37,707 bases of DNA. Source: a virus. The stretch lies in the IMG/VR virus record IMGVR_UViG_3300045988_025481, positions 1 to 37,707 of that record; one strand, written 5' to 3'. A program made the translations under genes and the position numbers. This document shows, piece after piece, positions 5,860-27,956 of this stretch; position 1 is the stretch's first letter; the number at the start of each line of letters is the position of its first letter. Below the pieces are notes generated by a model, which was not told the DNA's origin, ran no database searches, and saw only the letters and a program-made list of their open reading frames with translations.

Positions 5860-6873
5860 TTACATGATTTTTAAATTATCAACCTCTAATTCTAAGGTTC
5901 TATATCCACTCTTAATAACTTCAAATATATTTCTAATTCTTGCAGTTATTACTAGTCCAATTTCTGCTACTATAACATCAACTTTATCACCTAAATCATA
6001 GTCCACCTTATACTCGTATGAATCCGTATTTAAATTAAAATTCACATTCTCTTTAATTTGATAATCTGCTAGTTTTTCAATTCCTTTTTGAATTAACACC
6101 TTCTTATATTCATCAAGTGTTGTACCTTCTCCCATACGCTCAGAACGTGCGTCTACATACAATTTCTTGATTCTTTCATTCTTATCTTTTCTAGCGTCAT
6201 ATTCAACGTAAATACGCTCTTCGCCTTGCCCCTCTCCACAAATGATTGCATAGTTCTTGTATTTACTAGAATCAATCATAACGTCCGGTTCTTCAACATT
6301 TCTGAATTCTGTTGAAAAGGTAACAAAATTGTTTCCGTCTGTATTGTTTTGAGTCAAATCACGTCCTCGATACAATACAAATGTGAACGTACTTGATACA
6401 TAGTCATATTCTATGCGAAAAGACAATTCTAACGGATATAACATCTCATAAAGCTTCTTATCAAGGCTTGCTCCTGTTTCTTGTAAGTCTACGGTATCTG
6501 TAATGGATTCATCATATCTATACCCCATTTCCCATGAACAATACCTATCTAATAATTTCTTTACGACATCAACAATATTTCCACTGCTTGAGAATGTAGG
6601 ATAAATACAATCATCTGCTAGAATCTTTTCAAAGAAAGAACCTCTAAGCAACATTTGTTTAGTGTTGTTTGAAACCGAATAATGCGGTATTTCTACAATC
6701 CCTAACTCTTTATCCTCAGTAGAATAGATATATTGGATGTCGCTTGAATACTGCCCTATATCAATATAAATCTCGAAATCTCCTGTTTCATAATATCTCC
6801 GATTCCACTGCACGTTATAAGGTGCTAGATGAGTTACGATATTGAAATCTTTATCTAATCCAAAGTAAGACAT
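5860..6873 (-). CDS. tail tip/baseplate protein (siphovirus Gp37-like family)
   Basis: 337-aa ORF directly after Dit. The N-terminus (W.RRYYETGDFEIYID) resembles ReqiPepy6 Gp37-like proteins. Confidence 0.55.
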   Translation of the reverse strand: MSYFGLDKDFNIVTHLAPYNVQWNRRYYETGDFEIYIDIGQYSSDIQYIYSTEDKELGIVEIPHYSVSNNTKQMLLRGSFFEKILADDCIYPTFSSSGNIVDVVKKLLDRYCSWEMGYRYDESITDTVDLQETGASLDKKLYEMLYPLELSFRIEYDYVSSTFTFVLYRGRDLTQNNTDGNNFVTFSTEFRNVEEPDVMIDSSKYKNYAIICGEGQGEERIYVEYDARKDKNERIKKLYVDARSERMGEGTTLDEYKKVLIQKGIEKLADYQIKENVNFNLNTDSYEYKVDYDLGDKVDVIVAEIGLVITARIRNIFEVIKSGYRTLELEVDNLKIM

Positions 6874-21266: not shown

Positions 21267-22604
21267 TTACCTCCTTAAATCTATATATCCACTATGGGTT
21301 ATAAATGTGTAGCAGAACGAATCCCAATCATCATTGATATTGTTTACGTTCTCATCTTTCGGAATGTCTTTCTTTTCATCCCATACCAATTCGCTCAATG
21401 CATTTATTAAGTTCTTACAATGTTCTTCTATCTTCAATCTACCTGTAACAAGTAAGCTATCAACTGTTATAGGACGGTCCGTTAGCTCATTCTTCTTAAC
21501 CGGTGCAATTATACTACCGTCCAATCCTTCGGCGTAGAAATAAGCTCTAAGCGTGTTTATGAGTGTGTTAGAAGCACTGTCCGGAAATATCCATTCTACA
21601 TATCCGTAACATTCAATACAACGCTTATAGAATCTTACAAATGCTTTGCAGAACTTTGTTGCGTATATGGAATTAGATTTAGCCATGTCTCCTTCATCAA
21701 GTGCCCACATATAATCCCAATCATTTGTAAACCCTGTTAAGTGCCATGAATATTTCGAGCCATTGTCTCCAAAATCAACGCCAATAATTAAATGACTGAA
21801 CCTTTTCCCTTCTTCCTTCATCTTTTCTTTTAGACTCTGATATTTGAATAGGTAAGGCTTGCAGTTATTGGCAAAATAAGGAAAGACTAGACCTTCGGCA
21901 ACCATTCTTTCCCCTAAAATATCTCGCTTGTACCATACTGAATTCTTGTCATATTTGTTTTGGATTTCTTCGATTCTTTCTTGGCTCATTGTAGCATTGT
22001 CAAAGATGTTGAAGTGCTCATATCTGTACCAATCTAACCCCATAAATTTATCTATGTAATTCTTATAGATGTCTGCGTTTGGGTTTGATGGGTTTAAATC
22101 CCATAATGTAAATGGATGTACACTTGCAATCTGTCTTGCCATCGCTACCTTGATAAAGCTTGTTCTAGAATCATCACAATCGTAATGCTCATTTATTTCG
22201 GTCGCTATCCATCCACCATATGAGTTACCTAATATGCTCTTATATGAATCGGACTTTCCACCGCCTGTAAATATAACTATCTTTTCGCCTGTCTTTGTTT
22301 GGACAAATAGTGCTTCGTTCGATTTGTATTTACCCCAACGACACCGCCCACGAAAGATATGTTCTAAGCCGAAACCATTGCAATCGCCTATGTTTAATTT
22401 CGCATTTGGTAAGCTTGACCCACTCGCTAAATGTATTTTATCTTCGCATGTTTCTAAATACATTGAAAAGATTATGCAGTGGTCAATCGTTTTGCCACTT
22501 CGTACCGCTCCTTCTGCTACACTTTGTTTGTAATTTAGGGCGGTCTTAATATAATTCTTATGTTTATCTGAAAATTTCCCCCAAGGAATCGTTCTAGTCA
22601 TCAT
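21267..22604 (-). CDS. terL: terminase large subunit
   Basis: 445-aa ORF with Walker A EGAVRSGKT, PBSX/Terminase_3-like. The ATG overlaps the TerS stop. Confidence 0.9.
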   Translation of the reverse strand: MMTRTIPWGKFSDKHKNYIKTALNYKQSVAEGAVRSGKTIDHCIIFSMYLETCEDKIHLASGSSLPNAKLNIGDCNGFGLEHIFRGRCRWGKYKSNEALFVQTKTGEKIVIFTGGGKSDSYKSILGNSYGGWIATEINEHYDCDDSRTSFIKVAMARQIASVHPFTLWDLNPSNPNADIYKNYIDKFMGLDWYRYEHFNIFDNATMSQERIEEIQNKYDKNSVWYKRDILGERMVAEGLVFPYFANNCKPYLFKYQSLKEKMKEEGKRFSHLIIGVDFGDNGSKYSWHLTGFTNDWDYMWALDEGDMAKSNSIYATKFCKAFVRFYKRCIECYGYVEWIFPDSASNTLINTLRAYFYAEGLDGSIIAPVKKNELTDRPITVDSLLVTGRLKIEEHCKNLINALSELVWDEKKDIPKDENVNNINDDWDSFCYTFITHSGYIDLRR

Positions 22605-22942
22605 TTTAATAAATCTGCCAAAGGTGTTAAGTCCTCAATCTCATGTGTCATTGTCTGCTCAACCTTTTCGCTCTGTCCAAGCATTTGTTTACCTAACCAA
22701 ATAAGCATGGTCGTATTCCCTTTTGACGCTTTGTCAAATTGCATACGTCTTAAACTTCTTTTTGAGTGGCTTATACCTTTTTTATATGTCTGACAAAACT
22801 TTCTATTTCTTAATAATGTTCTTACCGAACATCCTAGGAAATCTGCAATTTCTTCTTGAGTACATCCAATAGAAGCAAGCTTTTCAACTGCTTCATAATC
22901 AATCTTTATTCTTGGGCGTCCTCCTGCGTGTTTCTCTGCTAT
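22601..22942 (-). CDS. terS: terminase small subunit (HTH)
   Basis: Not in the ORF track. The frame is open from TAG 22957 to TGA 22601 and encodes (M)AEKHAGGRPRIKIDYEAVEKLASIGCTQEEIADFLGCSVRTL... The first ATG is 66 codons in. ATA 22942..22940 lies 6 nt after a G7 run. Confidence 0.7.
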   Translation of the reverse strand: MAEKHAGGRPRIKIDYEAVEKLASIGCTQEEIADFLGCSVRTLLRNRKFCQTYKKGISHSKRSLRRMQFDKASKGNTTMLIWLGKQMLGQSEKVEQTMTHEIEDLTPLADLLK

Positions 22943-23094
22943 TTTAATCCCCCCCTATAACAATCATATTGATTCAATTGCTTTTTAAGCCTTTGTAATC
23001 TTTTTCTTAAATCTCTTTTTCTATATTCTGATGTCGTGTTTTCTAATTCTTCTTCAACGCTTTTCATTTGGCGTAAATGTTCTTCTCTAGACAT
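22939..23094 (-). CDS. 51-aa coiled-coil ORF ending at the G7 tract
   Basis: Hand-translated: MSREEHLRQMKSVEEELENTTSEYRKRDLRKRLQRLKKQLNQYDCYRGGLK. It overlaps the radical SAM stop. It could fuse to TerS by a -1 shift on the G7 run. Confidence 0.35.
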   Translation of the reverse strand: MSREEHLRQMKSVEEELENTTSEYRKRDLRKRLQRLKKQLNQYDCYRGGLK

Positions 23095-24394
23095 GTCTTG
23101 CTTCTTCTGTTTCAAGTTCTGTAATCTCCTCTGTTCTTTTTAAGAATGTTACTGAATTATCATATTCGTAAATGATGTCATTGTTTTCATCAAATCCTAC
23201 AGGCTTTAGAACCTTTTCAAAAATCTTATAAGGTGATTGTCCTGCTTTTGGTGAATTCCATAAATAATGAAGATAATCTTTCATTGTCATTCCTTTGAAT
23301 TTTGCTCTATTCTCTGATGAATTAGTGTTGAACCCAATAGCTTTATTAAATTGAAAATCTAAGAAATACATATCCTTTTCAATATCTTTCCAATGTACTC
23401 TTCCATGTTTCTTTGCAATTTGTAAAGCGCCACTAAAATTTCCTCTTGAGTAATCCCAATTCTTGTCTAATGCGCAACAACAACAATTATTTGAGCATTC
23501 TTTAAAGTGTGCGTCGGATACATAGAATCGCATACCTAATTCATCACATAGCTCTTTCATCTTTTGAATGTATTTAGCCTTTACTTTTCTGTTAAGTCTT
23601 AAATATCCACTTCCATTTGAATGTTTTCTATAGAAATCTACAATATCAAATCCTGCACATTCACTAATCACATCATAATGCTCCTTAGCTTGTTTAATAG
23701 AACGCATTTCTAAGCAAAAGAACTCCGTAGTAACTGCCGTTGCTCCTGCCTTTTTGGCTTCTCTAATTAAATCTAGATAGGTTTTATCTGATACTCCTAC
23801 AATAAATGGACGCAATCTTAAAGTTGCACCACCTTTAGATAGTTCAGTATATTTTTTCATTGCTTCAAGTCTTTTTCTTGGACTTGGCACACCTACTTCG
23901 ATTTTTCTTGCGTCCTCTTCATCTAGCGTGATGATACTAAACTTAACATTCCAATTGTCTGCGCCTTTGAACAATTCTTGATATTTAGGGTCATTAAATA
24001 CCCATGCCGATTTCGTACTAAAACAAATAGGATAGTTAATAGATTTCAAATACTTAAGCATTTCATAGGTTTTGCCATATTTCTTTTCGTATCCGTCGAA
24101 TTGGTCTGATAATCCACCATATTGAATAGGACGTCTGTCTTTAATGTATTTATAGAATTGTGATTTTGTATCTTCTCCACTGAAAATCTTTTTGCATTTC
24201 TCAACATTGATACATTTCACATCTTTATTAAGATATGCTTCTTTACTTGCACCAATACCTCTTTGATATTGGCTAAAACAATAAACGCACCCAAATGAAC
24301 AATTGGAATATGTATCAAATGTCACCGGTAATGAGCAATCTGCGATTTCTCCTGTCCATCTCGGTGATTGATATGTCTCACTGATTTTATTCAC
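23087..24394 (-). CDS. radical SAM enzyme (SplB/COG1533-like), substrate unknown
   Basis: 435-aa ORF with the CX3CX2C motif CSFGCVYC near the N-terminus and a second Cys cluster CSNNCCCC. GTG start after GGAGGATATAAG. Confidence 0.75.
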   Translation of the reverse strand: MNKISETYQSPRWTGEIADCSLPVTFDTYSNCSFGCVYCFSQYQRGIGASKEAYLNKDVKCINVEKCKKIFSGEDTKSQFYKYIKDRRPIQYGGLSDQFDGYEKKYGKTYEMLKYLKSINYPICFSTKSAWVFNDPKYQELFKGADNWNVKFSIITLDEEDARKIEVGVPSPRKRLEAMKKYTELSKGGATLRLRPFIVGVSDKTYLDLIREAKKAGATAVTTEFFCLEMRSIKQAKEHYDVISECAGFDIVDFYRKHSNGSGYLRLNRKVKAKYIQKMKELCDELGMRFYVSDAHFKECSNNCCCCALDKNWDYSRGNFSGALQIAKKHGRVHWKDIEKDMYFLDFQFNKAIGFNTNSSENRAKFKGMTMKDYLHYLWNSPKAGQSPYKIFEKVLKPVGFDENNDIIYEYDNSVTFLKRTEEITELETEEARHV

Positions 24395-24395
24395 C

Positions 24396-25157
24396 TTATA
24401 TCCTCCATTTTCTTTTCAACAATACTGTTCTATCTTTTTTTGTTACCATATCCGGATATTTCTTTACTAGGCGTCTAAGCCATAGTTCTTGTTCTCCTCT
24501 TTGGTATCTGTCATACATTCCGCCTTTTTCCTTTCCCATTAAAGATTTATTTGGCACAATGTTATTTGCTCTAGCTATGATATACCCTTGCCTAATCATT
24601 CTTAGATTCAATTCATAATCCTCTAACATATCCCATTTCTCATCAAATTTGATTTCTTCACTTTTAATAACAAAACACAATCCACCTTGTACGAGTGTAT
24701 TGAATGAATATGTTTCACCTTTCTTAACATAGCTAGCTATATTCATATTATTGGTTGTGGGTAGACATCCCATGAAGTGAATATTGTTCTTTTGCATAAA
24801 TGAGAATACCTCATTAAATGTCTTATCCAATTCAGTGATTTTTTTCTGCGCTCCACATTTATTTCCTTGCTTTTCTTCCCATTTCCTAAAATCTCTGATG
24901 TCATCATCTAGTAAGATGATTTTTGCCCCATTTTCAAAATAATTTAGAATGTTATTTCTATTCGAAGCTACGTTATTTCCACGCCTAGTAATGATTTGAG
25001 CTTGACTTCCTAATGTTTCAACATAAGTTTTGAAATCATTTGAATCATTTAAGCTAATAACAATTCTTTCATCTTCAATTCCACATTCTTTTAGTGCGTA
25101 ATACGTTTTACATTTTGGTCTATGGTAACTAGCTATTGCATAATAGATGTTATTCAT
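24396..25157 (-). CDS. GT-A-type glycosyltransferase-like protein
   Basis: 253-aa ORF with a Rossmann-like N-terminus and the DXD motif ILLDDDIRD. Confidence 0.5.
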   Translation of the reverse strand: MNNIYYAIASYHRPKCKTYYALKECGIEDERIVISLNDSNDFKTYVETLGSQAQIITRRGNNVASNRNNILNYFENGAKIILLDDDIRDFRKWEEKQGNKCGAQKKITELDKTFNEVFSFMQKNNIHFMGCLPTTNNMNIASYVKKGETYSFNTLVQGGLCFVIKSEEIKFDEKWDMLEDYELNLRMIRQGYIIARANNIVPNKSLMGKEKGGMYDRYQRGEQELWLRRLVKKYPDMVTKKDRTVLLKRKWRI

Positions 25158-25731
25158 GCATTAATTCCTCGATGTCGTAGCACACTTTCAATTCAGTTAC
25201 CTGCAATAGTTTCTCTAAGAATAGTTGTTCTTCCTCTGTTTCATATGTAATGATTACACGTTGCTTTTTTAGCATATCTTCTGAATGTTCGCTAAATGCG
25301 TCCATAAGCTCGTTGTCATATCCTTCTGCATCCATGTCCTCAGTTAATGCACTAATTTCAAAATCGCCGAATCCGAATTCTCTCATATCGATTCCGTCAA
25401 TTTCTTCAAGCTCTTCCATTTCTGTTTTTAATGCGTCTAAATCCCAAGACGCTTTTTCTGCCGTTTTATTATCTGCAATTCTAAATGCTTTTACTTGCTC
25501 ATCTGTTAAATCATCTGCAACCACGCAAGGAACAGTTTCTAAGCCTAATTCTTGACTAGCTTTATATCGTGTATGACCTGCAACAATCACTCCATTTTTA
25601 TCAATAACAATAGGCACTTTGAAGCCGAATTCCTCAATAGAATTTTTAACAAATTTCACTGCTCCATCATTGATTCTAGGATTATTCTCATAAGGTTTTA
25701 GCTCATTTAATCTTTTTTCAACAATATTCAT
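25150..25731 (-). CDS. ParB N-terminal (ParB/Srx) domain protein
   Basis: 193-aa ORF. L.PYENNPR...IVIDKNGVIVAGHTRYKA...VPCVV is the ParBc motif. The C-terminus is acidic and there is no methyltransferase domain. Confidence 0.75.
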   Translation of the reverse strand: MNIVEKRLNELKPYENNPRINDGAVKFVKNSIEEFGFKVPIVIDKNGVIVAGHTRYKASQELGLETVPCVVADDLTDEQVKAFRIADNKTAEKASWDLDALKTEMEELEEIDGIDMREFGFGDFEISALTEDMDAEGYDNELMDAFSEHSEDMLKKQRVIITYETEEEQLFLEKLLQVTELKVCYDIEELMHE

Positions 25732-26120: not shown

Positions 26121-26196
26121 TGGTTGCAGGAGAAGGAATTGCACCATTCGACCTCTAGCTAATAAGACTAGTGAGCTACTACTGCTCTATCCTGCT
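26121..26196 (-). tRNA. initiator-like tRNA with anticodon UAU (predicted to read AUA); CCA encoded
   Basis: Hand-folded cloverleaf. Acceptor stem G2-A7/U66-C71 with A1xA72 unpaired; U8; D stem GAGC/GCUC (A11:U24). Anticodon stem CUAGU/GCUAG with loop CUUAUUA. Variable loop AGGUC. T stem GAA(U)GG/CCUUC with loop UGCAAUU. The 3' end is A73-CCA. Confidence 0.6.
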
Positions 26197-26752: not shown

Positions 26753-27235
26753 CTAGAATGGTAAATCGTCTGAAGCAATATCTAAATCATTTTCACCGTT
26801 ATATTCTTGTTGTGCAATCTGTTGTGTTAAACTAGGTTGCGTATATGTGTTTTGAACGCCGTAAGCGTTGCTATTTGCTTGATTTGGATATTGATATGCA
26901 TTTACATTAGAACTATAATTCTGCCCATTAGAAGCGTTTTTAGGCGGTAATTGCACGTTATTAGCCACAACCTCAGTGATATACACTTTCTGCCCTTGTT
27001 GATTCTCATAATTTCTAACACTAATTCTTCCTTTGACTGTAACTAAATCACCTTTTTTGCAATACATATTTACAATATCTGCTAATTTATTCCATGCCAC
27101 ACAATTAATAAAATCTGTATTATCATTGATTCCATTTACTGCTACCGTAAACTTTGCTACGCTATTTCCATTTTGTGTTTTTGCTAACTCAACGTCTTTA
27201 GTTAAGTGCCCTGCTATTACTGCTACATTAATCAT
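26753..27235 (-). CDS. ssb: single-stranded DNA-binding protein
   Basis: OB-fold N-terminus, Q/N/Y-rich linker, and the C-terminal acidic tip DDLPF. Confidence 0.9.
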   Translation of the reverse strand: MINVAVIAGHLTKDVELAKTQNGNSVAKFTVAVNGINDNTDFINCVAWNKLADIVNMYCKKGDLVTVKGRISVRNYENQQGQKVYITEVVANNVQLPPKNASNGQNYSSNVNAYQYPNQANSNAYGVQNTYTQPSLTQQIAQQEYNGENDLDIASDDLPF

Positions 27236-27956
27236 TTTTTATTACCTCTTTTCTATCTTCAATTACTTCACATTTTGCTAGGATATCTCCAATTATTTCA
27301 TTATCATCAATGCCTTTAAAATATCCTTTTTCCTTCATCCCTCTTAAAGAATTAAATACTTTAAAACTGTATATACCCGGATAGCATTGTAATAATTCTT
27401 TTTCAAATTTAGTTAATTTGTATGCTGGCTTTTCGTGTGGTTGCTTTAGCCAATCTTTTGCCTTTTCACGACATCCTATTTGATTGATTTTAAAGTCACA
27501 GTCATTGCAATTAGTTTTATAACATAGCGTAGGTCTTCCTTTGACTACCGCTAAATTCTGCGCGTAATCTTCTAGAATTTCATCTTTGTAATGTTCAAAA
27601 TTCGTTTCCTGTTTTGTTTCTTGCTTTTCTTCTTCAAACATTTCTCTAGCAGTCATCTTTATCTTCCTCCATACTGTTAACTTCTGCCCACAGAATGGAC
27701 ATCGTGGATAATACCTGTTTCCATGATATGTTGGAATTGGAACAACTCCATGCTCGCAATTTGGACAACATAACATCAAATCACCGCATGGGCCAATTTC
27801 AACATCTATTGGTTTCTTTGGCGTTTCTTTATCCGTAAGATTTTCCAACAATCGAAAATATAACTTGGCACGGTCAGTCTCTTCTATCCCTGCTACATCA
27901 CACGTAACTTGATATTCCTTTTCAAGAACTTGCAACACTTCTTGATATTTATTCAT
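27228..27956 (-). CDS. zinc-ribbon protein, function unknown
   Basis: 242-aa ORF with CPNC...CPFC. Confidence 0.5.
   Translation of the reverse strand: MNKYQEVLQVLEKEYQVTCDVAGIEETDRAKLYFRLLENLTDKETPKKPIDVEIGPCGDLMLCCPNCEHGVVPIPTYHGNRYYPRCPFCGQKLTVWRKIKMTAREMFEEEKQETKQETNFEHYKDEILEDYAQNLAVVKGRPTLCYKTNCNDCDFKINQIGCREKAKDWLKQPHEKPAYKLTKFEKELLQCYPGIYSFKVFNSLRGMKEKGYFKGIDDNEIIGDILAKCEVIEDRKEVIKND

Follow-up and report, generated by a model that had tools for sequence, protein, structure and literature searches.

What does a phage do with a ParB-like protein, a glycosyltransferase and a radical S-adenosylmethionine (SAM) enzyme encoded side by side? The question is posed by a 37,707-nucleotide stretch of viral DNA (IMG/VR record IMGVR_UViG_3300045988_025481, positions 1 to 37,707; hereafter the window), in which three minus-strand open reading frames (ORFs) form an island directly upstream of the terminase genes, in the order ParB-like protein (25150-25731, 193 amino acids), GT-A glycosyltransferase (24396-25157, 253 amino acids) and radical SAM enzyme (rSAM; 23087-24394, 435 amino acids). 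The ParB stop and the glycosyltransferase start share an 8-nt overlap, and a single nucleotide separates the glycosyltransferase stop from the rSAM start. A first-pass annotation, made from the DNA letters, had described three coupled genes at 23087-25731 and had offered DNA, a virion protein or a nearby phage tRNA as their substrate; all three ORFs lie where it placed them, and the motifs it named (GHTRY, DDD, CSFGCVYC and CSNNCCCC) are all found in the translations. As set out below, we conclude that this is very probably a DNA hypermodification island, and we lean towards a role for the rSAM as its initiating enzyme, a hydroxylase-equivalent that would stand in, independently of O2, for the phage T-dioxygenases, aided by the ParB-like protein and followed by the glycosyltransferase.

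Thousands of homologues of the rSAM and of the ParB-like protein, together with a handful for the glycosyltransferase, indicate that these are real genes rather than chance ORFs. The closest homologue clusters hold 523 rSAM, 288 glycosyltransferase and 436 ParB member sequences. The rSAM family as a whole is large, with 2239 clusters (1510 representatives at the 50% level), among which the 120 homologues listed are all 77-98% identical; the glycosyltransferase family is rare, with 15 homologue clusters.

The glycosyltransferase belongs to the TET-Associated GlycosylTransferase (TAGT) family, Pfam PF20691 (46.8 bits against a cutoff of 27.5, residues 7-213, E = 4.5e-12). It also matches PHROG 842, 'beta-glucosyl-HMC-alpha-glucosyltransferase' (7e-20), and its translation carries a DxD motif, LLDDDI. 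Judged by its family, the enzyme would glycosylate a hydroxymethyl base in DNA. Phage TET products are glycosylated by adjoining glycosyltransferases (Burke et al., PNAS 2021, PMC8256090). The usual TET/JBP partner of a TAGT is missing from the Pfam matches listed for the window, where its partner is the rSAM.

The ParB-like protein matches Pfam ParB_N at residues 10-88 (36.3 bits against a cutoff of 26.3, E = 5.7e-9) and PHROG 620 (1.5e-57). It has an AGHTRYKA box and an acidic C-terminal half, and ParB_N is the only domain in its Pfam scan, with no methylase domain, in keeping with the unfused, acidic-tailed protein of the first-pass annotation. In an AlphaFold2 (AF2) model (mean pLDDT 72), a ParB/Srx nucleotide-binding domain at the N terminus is joined by acidic helices to a short element at the C terminus, and a helix-turn-helix DNA-binding domain is absent; the PDB structures that this model matches best are M. 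xanthus ParB (7bnr), Noc (7nfu), C. crescentus ParB (7bm8) and KorB (8qa9). ParB-like proteins activate phage T-dioxygenases on double-stranded DNA, in islands that also encode glycosyltransferases, kinases and amino-acid:DNA transferases (AADTs), and for the pair 5mYOX176/ParB176 the loading or holding of the enzyme on double-stranded DNA by ParB has been shown (O'Toole et al., PMC13229309). The same study reports M. xanthus and C. crescentus ParB as the closest structures to the ParBs associated with 5mYOX enzymes (PMC13229309). ParBs that adjoin Tet_JBP genes, most of them 190-240 amino acids long (one has 387), share 30-43% identity with the window ParB. By analogy, this ParB may serve as an activator or DNA-loading partner of the rSAM.

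The genes that might supply a hydroxymethyl base to the TAGT are not apparent in the window, which runs from integrase through lysis genes. Pfam scans covered 60 window ORFs, plus the early genes individually, and the first 25 of 38 families matched were listed. Among these listed matches there is no Tet_JBP, thymidylate synthase or DNA methyltransferase, no C5-cytosine methyltransferase, AADT or pyridoxal-phosphate (PLP) enzyme, and no DndACDE, DpdA or 7-deazaguanine synthesis gene; a local search seeded with ThyA likewise found no ThyA-like gene in the window. The Dnd and Dpd systems that the first-pass annotation had cited as companions of ParB-like domains are thus not represented among the matches listed, and its remark that no hydroxymethylase or thymidylate synthase is visible holds. 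We regard the missing hydroxymethylase as the key clue to the role of the rSAM.

IMG/VR, metagenome assemblies and metagenome-assembled genomes (MAGs) together supplied 138 related loci, which we annotated with local hidden Markov models (HMMs) and Pfam spot checks. The loci share a constant frame: ParB, a variable cassette, the rSAM, in some cases a SAM synthetase homologue, and then the small and large terminase subunits (TerS and TerL). Of the 63 loci that extend upstream by 3 kb or more, 60 have ParB upstream of the rSAM; two of the three exceptions were mislabelled through a short rSAM paralogue (rSAM2), and the third has a truncated rSAM. De-duplication left 66 rSAM loci, and the five of these without ParB all end less than 2 kb upstream.

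The cassette between ParB and the rSAM varies within this frame. A TAGT, of one of several divergent types, occupies it in 22 of the 66 de-duplicated loci, and a 5-hydroxymethyl-deoxyuridine (5-hmdU) DNA kinase (PF18748) with an AADT (PF18724), with or without a GNAT acetyltransferase, in about 20 of them; the kinase stands alone in four and a GNAT alone in two. Elsewhere among the 66 the slot holds a SAM-dependent methyltransferase, a cytidylyltransferase with an unknown protein and a TAGT, a GATase plus further genes, or a TAGT with a SPASM rSAM, or it is empty, so that the rSAM directly follows ParB (e.g. loci L009, L012, L018 and L022). The PF18748 and PF18724 matches in rSAM islands exceed the Pfam cutoffs. 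Kinases, glycosyltransferases, O-methyltransferase-like enzymes and acetyltransferases are all able to act on a hydroxyl, which fits a reading in which these cassettes decorate a hydroxymethyl handle.

The same exchange is seen among close relatives of the window. In L009 and L022, window positions 24417-25130 are replaced by 8 bp between flanks that are ~95% identical at the nucleotide level, and in L003, L010, L011, L013, L015 and L017 a second TAGT allele, with 58% amino-acid identity, lies in the same slot. Because the glycosyltransferase is deleted or allele-swapped in near-identical relatives, the trio is not fixed, and ParB and the rSAM form the core. Co-occurrence of the triad in related phages, which the first-pass annotation had made a test of its proposal, is therefore borne out for ParB and the rSAM, but not for the glycosyltransferase, a swappable accessory. 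In the sequence examined from the near-identical relatives without the glycosyltransferase, unique small ORFs included, there is no other recognisable modification gene; the sole sign of one is a sub-threshold methyltransferase hint at 6349-6861 of L009. The glycosyltransferase itself is a clean 714-bp presence/absence polymorphism among ~95% identical phages, and the second allele in L003 spans 6001-6768.

Several homologues join the rSAM and cassette enzymes in one polypeptide. We found two TAGT-rSAM fusions (P0136 and P0139), a P-loop kinase-rSAM-TAGT fusion (P0151), an intein-bearing rSAM-TAGT fusion (P0153) and a fusion of the rSAM with an FkbM methyltransferase (P0142). Together with the TAGT membership, the synteny with kinases and transferases, and a ParB resembling the known activators of T-dioxygenases, these fusions support a functional coupling of the three genes, with DNA as the substrate, the first of the candidates that the first-pass annotation had named. 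Among Firmicute-type phages the rSAM keeps 72-99% identity, and its identity to the Bacteroidota-type enzymes is 57-62%, while the neighbouring terminases are barely related. Further, rSAM identity is nearly the same within and between cassette classes (68.5% vs 67.3%); this independence from the cassette argues for a common substrate everywhere.

An independent probe with the AADT retrieved 74 new viral loci, which we sorted with the help of a Tet_JBP HMM built from Pfam-verified neighbours. ParB with the rSAM is found in 15 of these loci, a Tet_JBP dioxygenase in 23 (17 with ParB), and a ThyA-like gene, a candidate dUMP hydroxymethylase, without ParB in 18; the remaining 18, several of them short contig fragments, have none of these genes in the sequence examined. 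None of the 74 loci combines two of the rSAM, Tet_JBP and ThyA-like classes, and the exclusivity of rSAM and Tet_JBP reaches a one-sided Fisher p of 0.0017 on loci that are phylogenetically non-independent. The 33 ParB-bearing islands divide into 15 with the rSAM, 17 with Tet_JBP and one that ends at a contig edge. Consistent with this, the Tet_JBP HMM matched none of 79 rSAM loci, while matching 23 other loci. The two kinds of island mirror one another in gene order, ParB-transferase-kinase-Tet_JBP-terminase in the one and ParB-kinase-transferase-rSAM-terminase in the other. The ThyA-like class includes L095-L105 and L117, members of a different gut-phage group from IMG/VR sample 3300045988, which carry the transferase, the 5-hmdU kinase and a ThyA-like gene without ParB, rSAM or Tet_JBP; since this sample is also the source of the window's closest relatives, both routes to thymidine hypermodification appear in one metagenome.

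Two further features distinguish the rSAM islands. A SAM synthetase homologue accompanies 18 of 79 rSAM loci, compared with none of 23 Tet_JBP loci, and this linkage fits stoichiometric consumption of SAM on an abundant substrate; the window itself has none. These homologues are 263-351 amino acids long and contain the MetK N, M and C domains (e.g. L001 4065-4856 and L057 4492-5547). In a collection of species-representative genomes, all 20 rSAM matches fall in MAGs from gut, rumen or termite-gut anaerobes (Lachnospiraceae, Eubacteriales, Atopobiaceae, Prevotella, Phocaeicola, Segatella, Azobacteroides and one Methanobrevibacter bin), and it is from these 20 matches, on the rSAM side, that the link to anaerobes is drawn. 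The most economical reading is a non-orthologous displacement, in which the rSAM supplies the hydroxymethyl handle in phages of anaerobes, where an O2-dependent Fe(II)/2-oxoglutarate dioxygenase cannot work.

In the rSAM itself, residues 32-39 read CSFGCVYC and residues 300-307 read CSNNCCCC. The three cysteines of its CX3CX2C motif (C32, C36 and C39) are conserved at 93-96% across 57 sequences, cysteines 20, 227, 283, 306 and 307 are also conserved, and a C-terminal domain of ~140 amino acids follows the core. The match to Pfam Radical_SAM (PF04055) is weak, at 20.5 bits and under the gathering score; matches to the NCBIfam models PA0069 (1.3e-19, 70.4 bits against a cutoff of 360) and Rv2578c (8e-13, 48.1 bits against a cutoff of 430) are far below cutoff. 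Sequence comparison places the enzyme in a phage-specific family within the SplB/COG1533 clade, outside the spore photoproduct lyase (SPL), PA0069, Rv2578c and M6 gp53 families. An AF2 model (mean pLDDT 84) matches LIAS, HemN, NosL and PFL-AE in Foldseek with a probability of ~1.0; searches against PDB and BFVD return generic rSAM barrels and unnamed viral proteins, and the fold does not reveal the chemistry. Sequence searches of the PDB with a narrow and a broad profile gave nothing significant. The homologues P0141, P0143, P0153 and P0248 are interrupted by inteins, some of which contain a LAGLIDADG or DUF559 endonuclease domain.

We therefore weighed a specific scheme, in which the rSAM family would be the first known to hydroxylate 5-methylpyrimidines in DNA independently of O2, as an 'anaerobic TET/JBP' that converts T to 5-hydroxymethyluracil (5hmU) with SAM and water. 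This more detailed proposal we regard as an even call, as we do its extension that the family seeds a large, hitherto unrecognised range of thymidine hypermodifications (glycosyl, aminoacyl, phospho, methyl and acetyl) in phages that infect anaerobes of the gut and rumen, the window's product being a base-J-like glycosyl-5hmU. By analogy with the ParB-dependent T-dioxygenases, the ParB-like protein would help the rSAM to engage or hold double-stranded phage DNA after replication. The rSAM would cleave SAM to a 5'-deoxyadenosyl radical, which would take a hydrogen from the thymine C5-methyl group to leave an allylic thyminyl radical. This radical would then lose one electron, probably through an extra conserved cysteine (candidates are C20, C227, C283, C306 and C307) or a putative auxiliary cluster, and water would quench the oxidised species to give 5-hydroxymethyl-deoxyuridine in DNA without O2. 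The TAGT could next add a sugar to the hydroxyl of 5-hmdU, yielding a base-J-like glycosylated 5hmU; in relatives, kinases, transferases, methyltransferases or acetyltransferases would act in its place. DNA modified in this way would presumably be protected from restriction and other nucleases.

A number of points weigh against this proposal. We found no described example of an rSAM that hydroxylates a DNA base, and the sole characterised phage rSAM that modifies DNA, M6 gp53, is a tailoring isomerase and not an initiator (PMC8989533). The origin of the oxygen in water and the electron sink are put forward on chemical grounds, and the acceptor of the TAGT is read from family membership. The link to SPL is weak: SPL (4k9r), although the best PDB profile match, reaches only a non-significant E = 0.32, and SPL is missing from the top 50 Foldseek matches of the rSAM model. 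As the last gene of the cassette, the rSAM also stands where a final tailoring step would fit. Searches against cultured phages returned two weak faecal-phage matches to the rSAM and no cultured carrier. Finally, the locus counts include related contigs that are phylogenetically non-independent, and most relatives offer ~7-10 kb of sequence on each side, so that a hydroxymethylase might still be encoded there at a distance.

Several of these points would suit an rSAM that works late rather than first, as a tailoring enzyme like M6 gp53. It would then rearrange or trim a group already put in place by the glycosyltransferase or transferase, on a hydroxymethyl base provided by an unrecognised enzyme or by the host. 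In M6, the SPL-like rSAM gp53 isomerises N-alpha-glycinyl-T in DNA (PMC8989533); like the window rSAM it is a phage enzyme of the SplB-like ('DNA repair photolyase') kind, it acts on thymidine derivatives in DNA, and its genomic companions include a 5-hmdU DNA kinase and a transferase. The two proteins show weak homology (18% identity, hhalign probability 54%, E = 1.3e-4), the rSAM comes last in its cassette, and Lee et al. place rSAMs among the tailoring genes of metavirome clusters, where they appear as tailoring enzymes only. Orthology to M6 gp53 was considered and rejected, given the 18% identity, a BLASTP E of 0.002 and the hhalign probability of 54%. Its N-terminal extension differs and it lacks the region of the conserved CC motif of the window rSAM; it relies on the activities of a dUMP hydroxymethylase, a glycine transferase and a PLP decarboxylase, and none of the three was found in the window; and the literature that we searched does not mention a ParB partner of M6 gp53.

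Late tailoring explains neither the phages without a cassette nor the exclusivity with the known 5hmU sources. L009, L012, L018 and L022, near-identical to the window, keep ParB and the rSAM with no cassette and, in the sequence examined, no other recognisable modification gene. One highly conserved rSAM stands beside chemically unrelated cassettes, with a sequence that does not follow cassette type, and it is exclusive with both known sources of 5hmU, no source of a hydroxymethyl base having been found in the window. On this evidence we consider late tailoring by the rSAM unlikely. Such a step would better suit rSAM2, the short paralogue, which may be a tailoring enzyme. Mostly 277-285 amino acids long, it combines Radical_SAM and Fer4_12 without the C-terminal domain, is optional in some islands and scores ~88-118 bits against the family HMM. 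With this HMM we found it in L002 (2710-3543), L026 (9349-10191), L029 (11833-12669), L037 (908-1750), L049 (5889-6731), L066 (2019-2876), L076 (4989-5693) and L083 (4947-5804).

The rSAM might instead initiate, with ParB, at another atom or to another product: C5 hydroxymethylation of C or U with a carbon derived from SAM, another adduct at the thymine methyl group, or a modified purine. Class A rSAM methylases have paired catalytic cysteines, and the conserved C306/C307 pair, with C20 and C227, recalls them. The product is, in addition, deduced from context, and TAGTs were first described beside enzymes that act on 5-methylcytosine (PMC8256090). Against such alternatives, PF18748 and PF18724 occur above Pfam cutoffs in many rSAM islands, and their characterised substrates are 5-hmdU and 5-phosphomethyl-deoxyuridine (5-PmdU) in DNA (PMC8989533). 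The window's listed Pfam matches hold no C5-cytosine methyltransferase, and the partner that the rSAM displaces in syntenic islands is of the ParB-dependent T-dioxygenase type (PMC13229309). We hold initiation at a different position to be quite unlikely, and thymine oxidation to 5hmU by the rSAM continues to be our preferred reading.

A third possibility is that ParB and the rSAM serve DNA repair, as an SPL-like lesion lyase, or act as a packaging accessory, the cassette genes having merely settled in a permissive insertion site. One database source labels an rSAM homologue 'DNA repair photolyase', all of 45 diverse homologues match both the PA0069 and the Rv2578c models of COG1533 type, and the terminase genes directly follow the island. 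The window rSAM shares a CX3CX2C core with SPL, PA0069 and Rv2578c, and the allylic thyminyl radical that we propose is an accepted intermediate of SPL. Unlike these enzymes, however, it has the extra C-terminal domain and the extra conserved cysteines, and unlike SPL it is found in a context of DNA modification, not of repair. The SPL model TIGR04070 leaves the window rSAM unmatched and matches two of the 45 diverse homologues. Fusions of the rSAM to TAGT, kinase and methyltransferase domains are hard to reconcile with repair or packaging, which would also leave the kinase and transferase cassettes without a source of substrate; the habitat is the UV-free gut, and the ParB is of the T-dioxygenase-activating type. 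We consider this explanation improbable, and an SPL-type repair enzyme in particular was rejected, given the fusions, the absence of SPL from the top 50 Foldseek matches and the PDB E of 0.32.

We hold it very improbable that the three enzymes act on the phage tRNA or on a virion protein: rSAM enzymes commonly modify tRNA, and a tRNA with anticodon UAU does lie two genes upstream, but nine diverse rSAM islands (132 kb) contain none, for which reason tRNA was rejected as the substrate, nothing that we found points to a virion protein, and every partner family (ParB, TAGT, 5-hmdU DNA kinase and AADT) acts on DNA.

Among described systems, the closest to the rSAM island are the ParB-dependent phage T-dioxygenase (5mYOX, TET/JBP) islands (PMC13229309; PMC8256090). 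Both encode a small ParB in which a nucleotide-binding domain at the N terminus and an element at the C terminus occur without a DNA-binding domain, and for which MxParB and CcParB are the best PDB matches. Both adjoin terminase genes and draw on the same accessories, namely glycosyltransferases including TAGT, P-loop 5-hmdU kinases, AADTs, GATases, GNATs and O-methyltransferases, of which the window has the TAGT and its relatives the others. The rSAM island would also follow the same post-replicative logic, in which one enzyme makes the handle and others decorate it. They differ in that the window has an rSAM in place of the Fe(II)/2-oxoglutarate/O2 dioxygenase (Tet_JBP, PF12851), in that rSAM islands often add a SAM synthetase homologue, and in that the hosts of the rSAM islands are gut and rumen anaerobes and their product is a predicted one. 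The architecture is thus already known from T-dioxygenase islands, and what is new is the replacement of the dioxygenase by an rSAM, potentially with new enzymology. The first-pass annotation had known of no described system of this composition; this stands for the rSAM but not for the layout, since the ParB-dependent TET/JBP islands are a close published analogue (PMC13229309, PMC8256090, PMC8989533). O'Toole et al. (PNAS 2026, PMC13229309) mention neither rSAM enzymes nor anaerobes, and the full-text literature, subscription-only papers lying outside the scope of our search, yielded no description of an rSAM that replaces TET/JBP or supplies hydroxymethyl bases in DNA.

Two other systems invite comparison. 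Kinetoplastid base J, made by JBP1/2 and a glucosyltransferase, resembles the predicted path from T through 5hmU to O-glycosylation in DNA, but the proteins (rSAM and TAGT) are unrelated, and the setting here is a phage and anaerobic. ParB-fused methyltransferases of Streptococcus and other Firmicute phages share ~72% nucleotide identity with the N-terminal part of the window ParB and occupy the same slot upstream of the terminase; the window ParB, by contrast, stands alone, without a methyltransferase domain, and is followed by the glycosyltransferase and the rSAM. In the Streptococcus phage matches, the ParB N-terminal domain lies inside genes mostly annotated 'DNA modification methylase', which agrees with the first-pass description of the locus as a methylase slot. 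Likeness to cultured phages at the DNA level was limited to this N-terminal part of ParB, and the glycosyltransferase searched against cultured phages gave no match.

Should the rSAM prove to be the initiating hydroxylase, it would represent a new radical SAM reaction and a third independent route to hydroxymethyl-pyrimidine DNA, beside the dUMP/dCMP hydroxymethylases and TET/JBP. It would explain hypermodified DNA in phages of strict anaerobes, where TET/JBP cannot work, and would extend the role of ParB-like activators to a second, unrelated class of base-modifying enzymes. Base-J-like and other thymidine hypermodifications would then be predicted in abundant phages of the human and animal gut. 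Such modifications would affect evasion of restriction and CRISPR, as well as library preparation, nanopore base-calling and virome bias, and an O2-independent, SAM-driven DNA hydroxylase might find use as an enzymatic tool. The presence or absence of the glycosyltransferase and the swapping of its alleles among ~95% identical phages suggest an arms race with modification-dependent host defences.

The surroundings of the island are those of a temperate phage. Pfam matches in the window include an integrase, ERF, SSB, dUTPase, RusA, NinB, tail genes, a holin and an amidase, and we take the window to be a temperate siphovirus, with a gut anaerobe as its proposed host; a 25-kb megablast against cultured phages gave no match. 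Downstream of the rSAM lie a 58-amino-acid ORF and then TerS (~22601-22967, minus strand, placed by alignment with L003, L007 and L009) and TerL (21267-22604, minus strand, by tblastn), the latter 45-50% identical to its counterparts in C. difficile phages and a human faecal phage. TerS, which marks the downstream boundary of the island, is interrupted: a G7 run at 22949-22955 holds one G too many, so that the gene loses its start, where the alignment shows G5T and an intact ORF of 121 amino acids in L003, L007 and L009. The interruption may be a genuine frameshift or an error of assembly. On the other side of the island, outside the system, the tRNA at 26124-26196 (minus strand; Rfam RF00005, 48 bits against a gathering score of 29) confirms the placement of the three genes between a tRNA and the terminase. 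It was missed by ARAGORN, which reported no tRNA in the window. Its UAU anticodon reads AUA (Ile), it has an A1:A72 mismatch, and it is flanked by a sigma-like gene and a DUF6275 gene. Just upstream of the SSB gene, an early protein of 242 amino acids (27228-27956, minus strand) has no Pfam match and carries several CxxC pairs (CPNCEHG, CPFCG). In L002, the early region holds two Type-P5 twister ribozymes on the plus strand, at 515-578 and 1130-1182 (59 and 47 bits).

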